Part shown: positions 42,377 to 49,435 of the stretch, one piece after another
How positions within the stretch are numbered: the stretch's first letter is position 1
How the letters are laid out: the number at the start of each line of letters is the position of its first letter
Assembly (NCBI GenBank): GCA_048939995.1
Contig: JBHLOY010000005.1
Location: forward strand, 64,001 to 128,000
Direction of reading: 5' to 3'
Source of the DNA: Promethearchaeota archaeon
GTDB lineage: Archaea; Asgardarchaeota; Lokiarchaeia; Sigyniarchaeales; SOKP01
DNA: 64,000 nucleotides
The notes under the pieces: model-generated
What the model was told of the DNA's origin: nothing
Database searches by the model: none
What the model saw: only the letters and a program-made list of their open reading frames with translations
Position numbers and translations under genes: made by a program

Positions 42377-43879
42377 ATGGAAAATGTAATTTTAACTATC
42401 GATATTTCTTCAAATTCAGTTAAAGTTGGTCTTGTGTCTGAATTTTTAACTCTTAAATCACTTACTAATCAGAAATTTAAAGTAGTTGACGAGGATATCG
42501 ACGGACTTGCTAGAAGATTTAATATGGATGAGTTATGGAATGAAGTTTTAACTGGAATTGAATCAACATTATATAAACATAAATCAAAGGAATTTAACAT
42601 TATTGGAGTCTCCTCTTGTGCTCAAAGGATTGCCACAGTTTTCATTGATAGAAAAGGAGATGAAATCTATGGAGGCCCAAATACAGACGTTCGAGGAATA
42701 GATACAGAATACATCATTGAAGATAAATTTTCAGATGAAGAAATCTTTGAAATAACAGGACACAGCCCATCATTGCTATTTTGCCTAGCACGTTTATTGT
42801 GGTTTCGAGAAGAAGATGAAAATAATTACAACAGAATTAATAAGGTTTTAATGTTAGATGATTGGTTAATATACCGGCTTTCAGGAGTTTTTTGCACTGA
42901 TTTATCATCGTCTTCAGAATCTCAACTAATAGATATCAGGAAAAGTGAATGGAGTACGGAAATTATCCAGACTTTTGATTTTAACCCCGACTTTTTTCCT
43001 AAAATTGTGGATTCTGGCTCAATAATAGGTGAATTAAAACCAGAATTAAAAAAAAGATTTAATTTAGAGACAGAAATCCCAATTATTAAAACTGGGGGAG
43101 ATACACAAGCATCATTATTAGGTATGGGAGCTATTAAGGAGGGAGATATTGGAATTAGCTTAGGTACAACATCGCCCCTAGATTTAGTTATAAATCAACC
43201 AATAATAGACCAGGATCATAATTTATGGACTTCCTGTCATGTATTAAAAAATAAATGGTTAATTGAGGCTAATGCAGGGAATACAGGAACTGCCTACGAT
43301 TGGTTTAAAGATTCCTTTCTAAAAGAAAAAGTAGACAATGTAGATAATTTATTCGAATCCTATTTGAAAGATACAGAACCGGGGGACTTCTCAATATTTT
43401 CATATTTAGGGCCAGAAAAAATGAATATTAAAAATCAAACTTCAATAAAGAGAGGTATTTTTATTTTTCCACCTCCAATGATGATTTCTGAGAAACATCC
43501 TCATATTGAGCATTTTGCAAGAAGTATAATCGAAAATATTGCTTTTGGTATCTATGAAAATCATCAAGTTTTACAAAAATTCATAGATTTTAAGACGAAT
43601 ACATATTGTGCTGGAGGAATGGCTAAATCAAATGAATTCTGTAAAATTTTAGCAAATGTATTAAACACAGAAATAAAAACACCTAATTTTGAGGAATCTT
43701 CAGCTATAGGTATAGCATTAAATGTCCTAAAAACTCTGAAATATACACCTAATTTTAAAACAATTATCAATAACCTTGTAAAATTTAAAAGTTATTATCC
43801 AGTTTCTCCAATCGTAGATAAATATAAGAAGATTTATAATAAATGGAAGGCTTTTAAACAAAAAATTGACGATTTATGA
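42377..43879 (+). CDS. FGGY-family carbohydrate kinase (divergent)
   Basis: IDISSNSVK, CAQR, GGDTQAS, LGTT, AGGMA. Confidence 0.85.
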   Translation: MENVILTIDISSNSVKVGLVSEFLTLKSLTNQKFKVVDEDIDGLARRFNMDELWNEVLTGIESTLYKHKSKEFNIIGVSSCAQRIATVFIDRKGDEIYGGPNTDVRGIDTEYIIEDKFSDEEIFEITGHSPSLLFCLARLLWFREEDENNYNRINKVLMLDDWLIYRLSGVFCTDLSSSSESQLIDIRKSEWSTEIIQTFDFNPDFFPKIVDSGSIIGELKPELKKRFNLETEIPIIKTGGDTQASLLGMGAIKEGDIGISLGTTSPLDLVINQPIIDQDHNLWTSCHVLKNKWLIEANAGNTGTAYDWFKDSFLKEKVDNVDNLFESYLKDTEPGDFSIFSYLGPEKMNIKNQTSIKRGIFIFPPPMMISEKHPHIEHFARSIIENIAFGIYENHQVLQKFIDFKTNTYCAGGMAKSNEFCKILANVLNTEIKTPNFEESSAIGIALNVLKTLKYTPNFKTIINNLVKFKSYYPVSPIVDKYKKIYNKWKAFKQKIDDL

Positions 43880-43916
43880 GTTTAATTTTTATCAAATAAA
43901 AATTTAAGTGATTTAA

Positions 43917-44267
43917 GTGTCAGAATTTACAAATATAGAGTCTTGTTTAAGAGAAATTGAAAATCGTTATGTTAATACAGAAAAAGTAAGGAAAAAGTTG
44001 GTTAATTTCAGTGAACCTATTCAAATAAAGTTTTTAGATACTAGCAGATTTGTGTTAATTCTTATAAACAAAGATCTAGGGATTGAAATTAAGGATCACT
44101 CTAAAGATGATAGTGCAACAGTAAAGATTGAATTTTCTGCTGAACAGGATATGTTAGATTTATTTAATAAAGAGCTAGGTGCTGTTAAGGCTTATTCTAG
44201 TGGAAAAATAAAAATTATGGAAGGAAATATACGAAATTTAATGAAACTCAAGAGTTTAATGTTCTAA
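43917..44267 (+). CDS. SCP2 sterol/lipid-carrier domain protein
   Basis: C-terminal ELGAVKAYSSGKIKIMEGN..LMKL signature. Confidence 0.75.
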   Translation: MSEFTNIESCLREIENRYVNTEKVRKKLVNFSEPIQIKFLDTSRFVLILINKDLGIEIKDHSKDDSATVKIEFSAEQDMLDLFNKELGAVKAYSSGKIKIMEGNIRNLMKLKSLMF

Positions 44268-44291
44268 TTTTTATATAAAGGAGGCTATAAA

Positions 44292-45968
44292 ATGAAGGCA
44301 TTAATTACAGCAGAGATTTCTAATGATGTACTAGAAAAGCTCAAAAATGTTATCGAGATCACCTATGAAAGTTGGAGAAATACAGGAATTATTTATTTTG
44401 ACGTTAAGGAATTAGTAAAAAAGTTAAAGGGATATGATATATTTATAACATCCGCGGATGATTTAAAAAATGCAGAAATATTCGATCAATCAAATCTCAA
44501 ATTAATCATCTCCTGTCGAGGAGACCCCTTTAATATTAATTTAGAGGCAGCCACGCGAAATAAAATCCCTATCATTTTCACTCCCCTTAGAAATGTTGAT
44601 GCTGTAGCTGAACTTACAGTAGGGTTAATGATCTCTTTGGCTCGAAAATTAATACCAATAGATAAATTCCTACATTCCAAGGATTTTGAGGTAATTGATT
44701 TTGATGATTGGATTCAGCTCTACAATAATTATCTTGGAATCGAATTATTAGATAAAACAGTGGGTATTATTGGGTTCGGTCAAATTGGTCGAAGGGTAGC
44801 CCAAAGATTAAAAGCGTTTGGGGTTAAATTTCAAATTTATGATCCATATTTGCCAGATGAAATGTTAGAAGAGTATGGGAAGAAAGCTAGTATTGATAAC
44901 CTGATGAAAGAAGCTGATTTTATTACTATTCACGCTGCTGCAACAAAGGAAAATGATAATCTAATAAATGAAGAACGTATTCATTTAATGAAAAGTACTG
45001 CTTATATTCTTAATCTAGCCAAAGGTAGTCTTGTAGATTATGAGGCTTTACTTTTTGCTTTGAAAAACAAACAGATTGCAGGAGCTGCTCTGGACGTGTT
45101 CCCATTGGAGCCTATTGATGAAGATAATGAATTTTTGGTATTAGATAACGTGATTGTAACTCCCCATATAGGAGGAAATACTAAGGAAGTCATAACTCGC
45201 CAGTCATTAATGCTTTTTGAAGATCTTAAAGCTTGGTTAAATAATAAGAAACCTGTAAATATCCTAAATCCTGAAGTTTTTTCTGAAACTGAATATAAAT
45301 TAGATAAAATTGATATCAAAATAATTAAAGAAGAAATTGTAGCTATTTGTAAAAAATTGTTAAATGATGGACATGTAATAGGTTCTGCTGGTAATGTGAG
45401 TGTAAGAGTGAAATTAAATGATGAAGATCTAGTTTTAATAACTCCAAGTAATGTAGCATATGAAGAAATGAAACCTGATGATATATTAATTATAGATATG
45501 GAAGGTAAGGTTAGAGAAGGAAAGCGAAACCCCTCGGTAGAAAAGAGAATGCATTTAGATATTTATAAAGAAAGAGATGAAATTAATGCTATAATTCATG
45601 CTCATAGTATATATTCTACTGTTTTAAGTACTTTAAATCTCTCATTACCACCAGTTATAGAGGAGTTAGTGCCATACATAGGTGGAGAAGTCTTATGTGC
45701 TAAATATGAAGAAGCAGGTACTGTTGAACTAGCAGAAGAAGTTATTGAAGCCTTAGGAGAAAAAAATGCGGTATTACTTTCAAATCATGGAAATATTTGT
45801 TGCGGAAGCCATTTGGAAGGTGCTTATACCGTATTGCAATATTTAGAAAGAGGATCAAAAATCTATTATCATGCAAAATTAATTAAGGATCCTAATCTAT
45901 TACCTGAAGATACTGTTGATTATGAGAAAGATATATTTGAAATATTTAAAGAATCTAAGAAAATTTAA
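44292..45968 (+). CDS. D-2-hydroxyacid dehydrogenase fused to class II aldolase/decarboxylase
   Basis: N-part AVAEL, GFGQIG, LDVF..EP, TPHIGG; C-part GNVS, TPS, PSVE, HAH, NHG. Confidence 0.9.
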   Translation: MKALITAEISNDVLEKLKNVIEITYESWRNTGIIYFDVKELVKKLKGYDIFITSADDLKNAEIFDQSNLKLIISCRGDPFNINLEAATRNKIPIIFTPLRNVDAVAELTVGLMISLARKLIPIDKFLHSKDFEVIDFDDWIQLYNNYLGIELLDKTVGIIGFGQIGRRVAQRLKAFGVKFQIYDPYLPDEMLEEYGKKASIDNLMKEADFITIHAAATKENDNLINEERIHLMKSTAYILNLAKGSLVDYEALLFALKNKQIAGAALDVFPLEPIDEDNEFLVLDNVIVTPHIGGNTKEVITRQSLMLFEDLKAWLNNKKPVNILNPEVFSETEYKLDKIDIKIIKEEIVAICKKLLNDGHVIGSAGNVSVRVKLNDEDLVLITPSNVAYEEMKPDDILIIDMEGKVREGKRNPSVEKRMHLDIYKERDEINAIIHAHSIYSTVLSTLNLSLPPVIEELVPYIGGEVLCAKYEEAGTVELAEEVIEALGEKNAVLLSNHGNICCGSHLEGAYTVLQYLERGSKIYYHAKLIKDPNLLPEDTVDYEKDIFEIFKESKKI

Positions 45969-46166: not shown

Positions 46167-48209
46167 TTGGTGATAATATTGTCTCAATTAAGGGGCGTCA
46201 TTGTTCCATCCATCACGTTCTATAATAAAGAATATGAAGTAGATAAAGAATTACATGCACTGTTAAATCGCCATCTTCTTGTCAATGGGGCAGATTCACT
46301 ATACTTATTTGGAGTCACTGGTGAGGGAACACTATTCTCACATAATCAAGTTGAAAAAGCTAAACTTATTAATTTCACAATAGAGAGTATTGGGAAAAAC
46401 GTTCCAATAATGGTAGGAGTACTGGGAAATGAAGTGGAAGAAATAGTTAAGGAACTCAACGATTTAGGCAAAAAATTTAATGAAATTAACTTTGTATTAG
46501 CACCACCTTATAAAGAAAAGATAAATGAATTACAATCACATTTCACACAAATATTTGATTCATTAAGTATTAGAAATAGTATTTTTTTATGCAATAATCC
46601 CTTGGAATTTGCAGGAAATGAAATTACTCCAAAAATTGTAGGCGAACTAATGGATCTTAGGCAAATATCGGGTATAATTGATTCATTTGATAATATAAAT
46701 TATTGTAGATCATATATTCAAATGTTAAATGAAGAATTTTCTTTTTGTTGTGGAAAAGAGGAAAATTTTCAGAAATTTCTCCAGCTAATACCTCTAAATT
46801 TACGGAAGTTTTGTGGTTTAGTCCCCAACATTAGCAATTTAGTAAATATATGCTCAAAATTATATTATTGTGCAGTTGAAGACAAAATTTTAGATCTCTA
46901 TCAGTTACAAGACCAAATAAATGATGTTGGGAAAAATATTTACGATTTTAAAATCGAGAAGGGAAAAGTTCAAAGAGGTTTGAAATATTCTTTTTTATAT
47001 CTCTACAGAGATATTATTCAAAACTATATTGAAATCTACAATAATATAACTCCTGAAATCCAAAGAGAATTAGATGAAATCACTAAAGTAAGGATACAGG
47101 CAACCATTAGTTCCTTATTAAACCAGAAATTTATTTACCAATTATATTCTCTTGGTAAAGAAGAAATTTATCAATTAGATGATATTATCAAAAGATTTTC
47201 CAATATAGATGTTTTAAGTAAACAAGGTAAAATTAAAAAAATTAAAGGTCCATTTCAAGCAAAAATAAATACTATTTACCGAGTGAATTTTGAAAATAAT
47301 CAATTGATTTTCAGATTTCGAACTTTAAAATCTTCTAAAAGTGAAAAATTGATAAAAGAAAAACTGTTATTTCCTTTTTTAGATAATTCATTAAATCCAA
47401 ACTTAGCAAACTTTAGGGAGAAAGTGAAAGAAATAATCGCAATTAAAAAAGGAGAATATATTTTCGATAATGATAATCCTCCTATAATACCTGTGGCTGA
47501 TTTAGTCTACTATGACGAAACCAAAGAGGCAATTCCATACTTATTTTCAATTTATAATTATCTTCATGGAAAGTCTTTAAAACGTTTGTATGAAAAATAT
47601 CGAGATGAGAATTTCAGTTTTAATAAATCGAAATTCCTTAATTTATTTACTGAGATTGGAGAGCTCTTAGGAAGATTACATAGTATAACTTTCAATTCAT
47701 TTTATAATGATATTTATGAACTGGGAAAAGAAGGAAAAGAGAATTACATAGAGTATTTTTCTTCAGATTTAGAAAATCAAATTCAATACAATTCTGCTCA
47801 AGAAAAGGAAATAATGAATTTTGTAAAGGATAATGTATCATTACTAGAAGAAGATAGCCCCATTTTAATTCATAATGACTTTCAATGGACTAATATTATT
47901 ATTAAAGATGATCCCGGGAAATTCCAATTAAGTGGAATAATTGATTTTGATGACTGGGCCGTTGGGGTAAGAGCACAAGATTTTATGCTAATGGAAAATA
48001 TAACCCTTAAAGTTATTAATAATATTGAGATAAAAAACAAATTTTATGAAGGTTATCAGAAATATCATAAAATTAATAATGATTTTTACAAAAAAATTGA
48101 ATTATTTTCCATTTTGTACTACTTAAAAGAATATAATATCGCGAAACAACAACAATTAAATACAAATTTATATTTAGAGAAAATTCAGCAAATTTTAGAT
48201 AAAAATTAG
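46167..48209 (+). CDS. DapA-like TIM barrel (catalytic Lys absent) fused to APH/choline-kinase-like phosphotransferase
   Basis: GVIVPSITF, GVTGEG, PIMVG, APPY, FLCNNP, SGIIDS; C-part LGRLH, HNDFQWTN, IIDFD. Confidence 0.8.
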   Translation: MVIILSQLRGVIVPSITFYNKEYEVDKELHALLNRHLLVNGADSLYLFGVTGEGTLFSHNQVEKAKLINFTIESIGKNVPIMVGVLGNEVEEIVKELNDLGKKFNEINFVLAPPYKEKINELQSHFTQIFDSLSIRNSIFLCNNPLEFAGNEITPKIVGELMDLRQISGIIDSFDNINYCRSYIQMLNEEFSFCCGKEENFQKFLQLIPLNLRKFCGLVPNISNLVNICSKLYYCAVEDKILDLYQLQDQINDVGKNIYDFKIEKGKVQRGLKYSFLYLYRDIIQNYIEIYNNITPEIQRELDEITKVRIQATISSLLNQKFIYQLYSLGKEEIYQLDDIIKRFSNIDVLSKQGKIKKIKGPFQAKINTIYRVNFENNQLIFRFRTLKSSKSEKLIKEKLLFPFLDNSLNPNLANFREKVKEIIAIKKGEYIFDNDNPPIIPVADLVYYDETKEAIPYLFSIYNYLHGKSLKRLYEKYRDENFSFNKSKFLNLFTEIGELLGRLHSITFNSFYNDIYELGKEGKENYIEYFSSDLENQIQYNSAQEKEIMNFVKDNVSLLEEDSPILIHNDFQWTNIIIKDDPGKFQLSGIIDFDDWAVGVRAQDFMLMENITLKVINNIEIKNKFYEGYQKYHKINNDFYKKIELFSILYYLKEYNIAKQQQLNTNLYLEKIQQILDKN

Positions 48210-48682: not shown

Positions 48683-49435
48683 TTATTTACTTTTAGGGCG
48701 TATATATCCAAAATATGCACCAATAATTCCACAGATTACAAATATCCATCCTAAATAATAAAAAACAGAGAAAGAGAATTCTTCTCCACCAATTAAAATC
48801 ATTAATCGGTCGAATAAGAAATTTAAAGGCACTAATATAAAGAATATAGACATTAGAGCTAACGCTAAGAATGCATTTTTAAAAATCCTTTCCTCTGTTA
48901 ATCTATAGGATTGATAAGATCTCCAAAGAAATGGAAAATATATATATGTCATAAAAAGAAATACAAAAAAGAATGCAATCACGTCTAGTAAAGTATTACC
49001 TCTCTAATGCACTATAAAGGAGTATCCCCCAGTAATAATCCCTAAGATCACTACAAGATACTTTTGGACTTTATTATAGCCCTTTCCAAATACATTTACC
49101 TTAAGTATATATGATATAAAGATGGCAATAGTTAGAAATAAGAAGCTAATTCTGAAATCAATAATCCTTAATACAATCCAAGATATTGGGGTTCCAGGAT
49201 CTGGAGCTAACTCATTATAAATATATTCTTCACCAGAATATAACACTAAGATTTTTGAAAGCCATGAGAATATTATTGCAATAACATAATTTAAGAAGAT
49301 CAAAAAAAGGTAAAGAGTTAATCGGTGTTTTTTTTGGTAATATTTAATTAGTATTAGTATCAATAAGAAGGCAGCCACAACAATTATAAATGATTCAAAA
49401 ACCATTCCTACGAATTGTTTATCGACAAAAATCAT
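48683..49435 (-). pseudogene. 7-TM membrane protein gene interrupted by one in-frame TAG (49004-49006): nonsense allele or read-through
   Basis: ORFs 49004-49435 and 48683-48982 are in the same frame: ..SFIVH-TAG-RGNTLLDVIAFF..; joined product has 7 hydrophobic segments. Confidence 0.75.

Follow-up and report, generated by a model that had tools for sequence, protein, structure and literature searches.

The closest described relatives of the protein reported here belong to two families. The first is the DapA/NAL family (PF00701; 4uxd, 1w37, YagE 2v8z, NanA, DapA), whose members are (beta/alpha)8 barrels with a C-terminal helical domain and assemble as homotetramers, each a dimer of tight dimers. 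In DapA, T44, Y107 and Y133 form the catalytic triad and K161 is the Schiff-base residue (PMC3369909, PMC11201819), mutation of which largely impairs the enzyme (PMC3369909). Unfused relatives carry, as YagE does, the motifs GSTGE, YNxP and GIKD. The second family comprises the APH/choline-kinase-like kinases (PF01636; APH(2''), APH(4)-Ia, APH(9)-Ia, FN3K-like, 25-hydroxysteroid kinase, LicA, NahK), which have a two-lobed fold and the motifs HxDxxxxN and DFD. As a functional analogy, a TIM-barrel enzyme is paired with an APH-fold kinase in TreS-Pep2 (trehalose synthase and maltokinase, 5jy7), whose structure was among our fold matches; the two also exist in fused forms and act at consecutive steps of one pathway. 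TreS-Pep2 differs from the present case in that its barrel is of the unrelated GH13 type, both partners are active, and neither is a dead barrel.

We analyzed 64,000 nt of contig JBHLOY010000005.1 from a Promethearchaeota archaeon (assembly GCA_048939995.1, positions 64,001 to 128,000), referred to below as the window. A single open frame of 680 aa had Pfam matches above cut-off to DHDPS (residues 8–207, E 2e-20) and APH (residues 441–609, E 6e-11). Its true start is probably TTG 46179, since the Atlas record opens at residue 5 and most homologues begin there. The AlphaFold model (pLDDT 89.4, pTM 0.79) matched NAL, YagE, DHDPS and KDG-aldolase barrels over its N-terminal half (target TM about 0.75–0.87); Pfam, the model and the fold matches thus all indicated a DapA/NAL-type barrel with its C-terminal helical domain. 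The other half carried the hallmarks of ELK kinases: HxDxxxxN, the D(F/W)x Mg motif, a basic residue on beta3 and the alphaC Glu. The features were as follows.

42377–45968: cassette of FGGY kinase, SCP2 and (2-hydroxyacid dehydrogenase plus class II aldolase)
46167–48209, + strand: fusion gene, pseudo-aldolase barrel plus APH-fold kinase, 680 aa (frame, Pfam, homologues, AlphaFold model)
46188–47123, + strand: catalytically degenerate (beta/alpha)8 barrel of the DapA/NAL family plus C-terminal helices, spanning residues ~8–319 (Pfam, fold match, alignment)
46311–46328, + strand: GVTGEG loop (DapA G43-T44-T45-G46-E47) with Val at T44 (alignment)
46590–46592, + strand: Cys142 (TGC) at the catalytic Tyr133 position (alignment)
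46677–46679, + strand: Ile171 (ATT) at the Schiff-base Lys161 position (alignment)
46959–46979, + strand: basic motif KGKVQRG, specific to the subfamily and reading GKAQRG in active relatives (conservation)
47124–47171, + strand: conserved linker that follows the final barrel helix and lies at the ancestral two-gene junction (homologue alignment)
47172–48209, + strand: APH/choline-kinase-fold (ELK) kinase domain, residues ~336–680, with the ancestral C-terminal VDxRFP segment deleted
47313–47360, + strand: beta3 Arg383 to alphaC Glu398, ATP-binding ion pair
47871–47894, + strand: HNDFQWTN catalytic loop (Asp571, Asn576)
47943–47951, + strand: DFD Mg-binding motif (Asp593)

Alignment to E. coli DapA and YagE placed Ile171 on K161, Cys142 on Y133, Val50/Thr51 on T44/T45 and Lys116 on Y107. 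Unlike DapA/NAL proteins, this barrel therefore lacks the Schiff-base Lys on beta6 (GIIDS), the catalytic Tyr on beta5 (LCNNP) and the Thr44 equivalent of the carboxylate loop (GxxGE, here GVTGE), which agrees with how an earlier note on this DNA had read the three motifs. Of the residues that mark DapA itself (Y106/Y107, R138, N248), two were also altered (Y107 to K, R138 to E). The whole subfamily departs from DapA/NAL in three ways: it lacks the interdigitating Tyr107, it carries a GKAQRG motif of its own, and it has a helical insertion behind beta7; the KGKVQRG form of that motif is present here and decayed in most dead barrels. Pocket residues retained in this protein were T51-G52-E53-G54, G196, E198, P220, K267, Q269 and R270. 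Besides being fused to a kinase, the barrel fell far below all equivalog cut-offs: 68 bits versus 206 for DHDPS (TIGR00674) and, with the active relatives included, 36–53 bits versus 390 for KDG/KDPG aldolase (NF040954) and 21–31 bits versus 382 for nanA. A role in lysine synthesis was ruled out by an intact DapA-DapB elsewhere in the genome, and the database label "dihydrodipicolinate synthase family" should not be taken to mean that these proteins make lysine or act as aldolases. The genome also encodes a DapA-Fae fusion, and no active copy of the present barrel subfamily was found elsewhere in it. An intact DapA-family aldolase fused to a formaldehyde-activating-enzyme (Fae) domain (495 aa) was seen at L002:1474-2961 (G000:C17), and many genomes of the genus contain DapA-matching frames of about 500 aa.

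Among the matches listed were about 120 full-length fused homologues, almost all labelled as Promethearchaeota/Lokiarchaeota MAGs and a few as other Asgard archaea. In the ESM Atlas, a single cluster of 157 members, all of them archaeal, contained both domain families. Across GTDB genomes, the kinase half was single-copy in 86 of the 134 genomes of the window's Lokiarchaeia family and in 3/14 and 3–4/4 genomes of two sister families, and it was not found in 246 sampled genomes outside the order; the barrel subfamily was distributed likewise. The fusion gene is dispensable, as just 19 of the 41 genomes in the window's own genus carry the kinase half and several near-complete ones do without it. 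Kinase-only genes within the family (G087, G111, G140) proved to be contig breaks, and three distant APH relatives (P0192, P0200, P0202) had no aldolase neighbour. Literature searches on the DHDPS+APH architecture, DapA pseudoenzymes, Asgard pseudokinases, DapA+sialidase and Lokiarchaea+NAL returned nothing relevant, with subscription journals mostly outside their reach. As far as this literature goes, the architecture is, as had been claimed, undescribed: it is a new combination of two known families, auto-annotated in databases, for which we found no paper.

A fusion or frameshift artefact was ruled out, because the ~120 homologues (580–710 aa) share a conserved linker. In sister families, the two halves are separate genes, with the barrel first and the kinase directly next, overlapping or separated by at most about 80 bp; such unfused adjacent pairs were found at ten loci (L043-L048, L086, L087, L094, L096). 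The unfused barrels retained Lys in 19/20 cases and Tyr in 20/20, versus Lys in 13 of the 125 fused proteins; a Lys retained in homologues was among the findings that the earlier note had named as refuting its reading, and it does occur in these 13 fusions. When the barrel tree was rooted with ordinary members of the DapA family, the fused clade of this family (98–99 SH-aLRT) was nested among unfused barrels. P0125 represented an independent second fusion, with which the kinase tree agreed. The root of the kinase tree lies on long branches and is unreliable, and the direction from split to fused is not fixed by that tree alone; the case for it rests on the barrel tree and taxonomy. The Lys state changed at least four times on the barrel tree, the commonest replacements in dead barrels being Ile and Asn, both reachable from a Lys codon by a single base change, and fused forms with the full aldolase site persist among living relatives.

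The gene thus descends from a two-gene Lokiarchaeia pair, still present with complete catalytic sets in sister families, that was fused in the family's ancestor, and once more independently, after which the aldolase site decayed at least four times, this genome included. Separate genes in relatives had been named as a sign of a fusion artefact; together with the Lys-bearing fusions, the split genes of the sister families instead reveal where the fusion came from. The main value of the family lies in this complete natural series, which runs from adjacent active genes through an active fusion and a dead-aldolase fusion to a fusion with altered kinase residues. Since all stages survive and the tested dead-barrel fusions are under purifying selection, the question of why a pseudoenzyme domain is kept becomes directly testable with matched homologues. 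A separate rearrangement or misassembly was seen at L049:9602-11980 (G045), where a gingipain-like peptidase C25 protein carries, in frame, the kinase's C-terminal third.

The fusion gene occupies a fixed place across the family, between an SRP54...AMMECR1 block and an IMPase/DinB block. In the window, it lies 198 bp after the FGGY-SCP2-dehydrogenase/aldolase II cassette, in line with the earlier remark that it directly follows a catabolic cluster. The implied functional tie did not hold, because cassette and fusion gene are each lost without the other. Across the family, the cassette was gained and lost as a block independently of the fusion gene: it was missing where the fusion was kept (L038/L058, L053, L067, L069-L072, L075, L076, L080-L082), reduced to remnants at L054, and intact at L102, where only a remnant of the fusion is left. 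The two are often set apart by a divergent gene, and unfused pairs sit in other neighbourhoods. Functional coupling was therefore ruled out; the adjacency is a matter of synteny and does not point to a common pathway.

Two neighbouring genes deserve mention. At 13 loci (L071:8122-8886, L065, L068, L070 and nine more), a conserved gene of ~250 aa without a Pfam match lies divergently upstream of the fusion; by eye, it is an aldo-keto-reductase-like barrel with a GMKTLAAG motif. The present genome carries it on a different contig, and a distant homologue (L086:8207-8995; 22%, E 9e-7) is found behind an unfused pair. On the reverse strand of the window (48683–49435), a membrane-protein gene upstream of a longin gene, which is one ~250-aa ORF in relatives (84% identical, same frame), is cut by an in-frame stop (49004–49006) into 143 and 99 aa; it is either a recent pseudogene or a sequencing error.

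The dead barrel is under purifying selection and is not junk. Its dN/dS between close relatives was 0.13–0.4, similar to that of the kinase half and of neighbouring enzymes (window versus L037: barrel 0.125, kinase 0.157), and the two halves diverged equally across the family. We compared conservation on the outside of the barrel, where L167/Q196/L197 form the weak-dimer face of DapA (PMC11201819, PMC3369909). The equivalents of that face (I177, Q206, L207) scored 0.80 in dead versus 0.32 in unfused barrels, the outer face of helices 9–10 scored 0.75 versus 0.30, and the last helix with the linker scored 0.76 versus 0.35, in a comparison that covers only a few columns (nominal P 0.04 and 0.001) among kin that are not independent and with a fused clade that is less diverged. 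The tight-dimer loops were variable in all groups (0.47 in dead barrels). Given the few columns and the lower divergence of the fused clade, the conserved outer face is suggestive of packing against the kinase or another subunit, and interface columns alone cannot separate packing in cis from oligomerisation.

The reading we prefer, and to which we give an even chance, is that the protein would be what is left of a catabolic gene pair: a small-molecule kinase that carries a pseudo-aldolase module in a structural role. Its barrel would be a pseudoenzyme with an unused pocket whose outer and final helices may pack on the kinase or another subunit, which would explain why it is kept, as a fold stabiliser or oligomerisation module. 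The kinase would still bind Mg-ATP and phosphorylate a small hydroxylated acceptor, either unlike the ancestral one or less strictly selected. Of the earlier proposal that the barrel serves as a sensor or a scaffold, the scaffold half fits a barrel that has lost its aldolase residues and is nonetheless retained by purifying selection; the sensor half is taken up below.

The kinase half was compared with its unfused counterparts. This protein has R383, E398, H569-N-D571, N576 and D593-F-D595, with Arg in place of the usual Lys on beta3 as in most of the family, unfused forms included. ATP and Mg residues were kept in 89–100% of dead-barrel proteins (D571 in 89% and D593 in 93%, weighted). Positions invariant in unfused kinases were largely lost from the dead-barrel proteins: in the P-loop GPFDGKINS, G365 remained in 29% and K366 in 26%; R391 of the AFRYE motif remained in 9%, W612 in 35%, and the C-terminal ExNxxVDxRFP segment, deleted in this protein, in about 10%. 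Judged by the anatomy of APH and choline kinases, these positions would line the acceptor site. The kinase had been called intact, which fits its ATP and Mg motifs (HNDFQWTN, DFD) but not the ancestral P-loop and acceptor-side signature. Compared with known APH kinases, identity was 11–20% with no single family standing out and no resistance context, and, in addition to the N-terminal pseudo-barrel, alphaC is followed by an insert of about 35 residues that is specific to the family.

With the ancestral P-loop and acceptor-side residues gone, the kinase may be inactive too. At least one of R/K383, E398, H569, D571, N576 and D593 was changed in 31 of the 125 fused proteins (HNN, GFD and NFD variants), which amounts to at least five events on the kinase tree, and some basal fusions keep the aldolase site while their kinase reads NFD. 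Each of the two ancestral activities has thus been relaxed in one lineage or another, with the gene retained. A rather doubtful but broader reading is that the family may be an Asgard-specific regulator built from repurposed metabolic enzymes, the barrel acting as a sensor or docking hub and the kinase now as a protein kinase or ATP-binding switch; if so, all intermediates from operon to double pseudoenzyme would survive within one archaeal order. We consider it unlikely that both halves are non-catalytic and that the protein serves as a scaffold or regulator that binds ATP and is retained for a binding role. The core changes agree with such a loss, as do the acceptor-side signature, which is lost more fully here than in most homologues, and the presence of the gene in 52/54 genomes of g28, the sampled genus of the most-changed clade. 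The other 94 fused homologues, this protein among them, nevertheless retain all six core residues, and D571 and D593 are as frequent in dead-barrel proteins as given above.

The sensor half of the earlier proposal was a barrel that senses a 2-keto acid and controls the kinase; on this reading, the dead barrel would bind a 2-keto acid or sugar acid non-covalently and gate the kinase allosterically. A sensor would be expected to conserve its pocket. We scored weighted conservation at nine DapA-defined pocket positions, with the Lys column left out because it served to define the groups. Unfused barrels and Lys-bearing fusions both scored 0.97 (backgrounds 0.49 and 0.65, respectively), and the 111 dead fusions, as a family-level measure, scored 0.54 (background 0.63). 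The T44/T45 positions fell to 0.25/0.33 in dead barrels, and the family-specific basic set fell from 0.93–0.98 to 0.55. The GxTGE loop drifted to SRIGE, GTKGA, GRMDK, NMEE and others. With the dead-barrel pocket at or below background, there is no sign of a ligand shared across the family, and the proposed sensor appears quite improbable even though the barrel is under purifying selection and this protein retains the pocket residues named above. Because its pocket is better kept than that of most dead barrels, ligand binding in this one lineage is possible.

Between the small-molecule and protein kinases that had been suggested, the second appears very improbable. A Ser/Thr protein kinase of the SrkA/RdoA or Bud32 type, with the barrel as docking domain and loss of the lid opening the site to proteins, would be consistent with a weak match to PRK11768 (SrkA/RdoA protein kinase, NCBIfam; E 7e-8) and with the missing C-terminal segment, which does not vary among unfused kinases. 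That match reached 32 bits against a cut-off of 194, the ancestry is that of a metabolic gene pair, and the model of the unfused kinase scored Z 19–20.5 against small-molecule kinases, 17.1 against YihE and 13.9 against Bud32, values that lie close together. Least credible of all is a Schiff-base-independent aldolase or dehydratase activity of the barrel, for although the fold and several pocket residues are still present, the Lys161, Tyr133 and Thr44 equivalents are all replaced, the loss of K161 largely impairs DapA (PMC3369909), and no new conserved catalytic residue appeared in the pocket of dead barrels.

The best profile matches of the active barrels were Picrophilus KDG aldolase (4uxd) and YagE (E about 5e-30). 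Common to the active barrels are Arg255 and the basic GKAQRG motif, which sit close to the mouth of the barrel and could bind a carboxylate or phosphate group. At three loci, active barrels have sialidase-like BNR genes as neighbours, and mutually homologous NUDIX genes flank several unfused pairs. The model of the unfused kinase matched small-molecule hydroxyl kinases over ~290 residues (Z 17–20.5) with no single family ahead. The simplest reading, from sequence comparison, is that the ancestral pair would have been a module for sugar-acid cleavage and phosphorylation: a class I (Schiff-base) aldolase, active and of the KDG-aldolase/YagE/NAL type, with an APH-fold kinase directly after it. 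The aldolase would cleave a 2-keto-3-deoxy sugar acid, possibly an ulosonate freed by the sialidase-like hydrolase, and the kinase would phosphorylate the substrate or the aldose product, a substrate guess based on few, variable gene neighbourhoods. The unfused pair would represent a candidate catabolic module of Lokiarchaeia that combines an aldolase with a kinase.

Paralogues of the barrel that stand alone and are catalytically complete were also observed in sugar-uptake clusters (L103-L105, L089, L092, L093). Their neighbours include MFS transporters, a Zn dehydrogenase, a 935-aa protein without a Pfam match, inositol-1-phosphate synthase and BNR sialidase-like genes, and these loci are good candidates as leads to the ancestral substrate.
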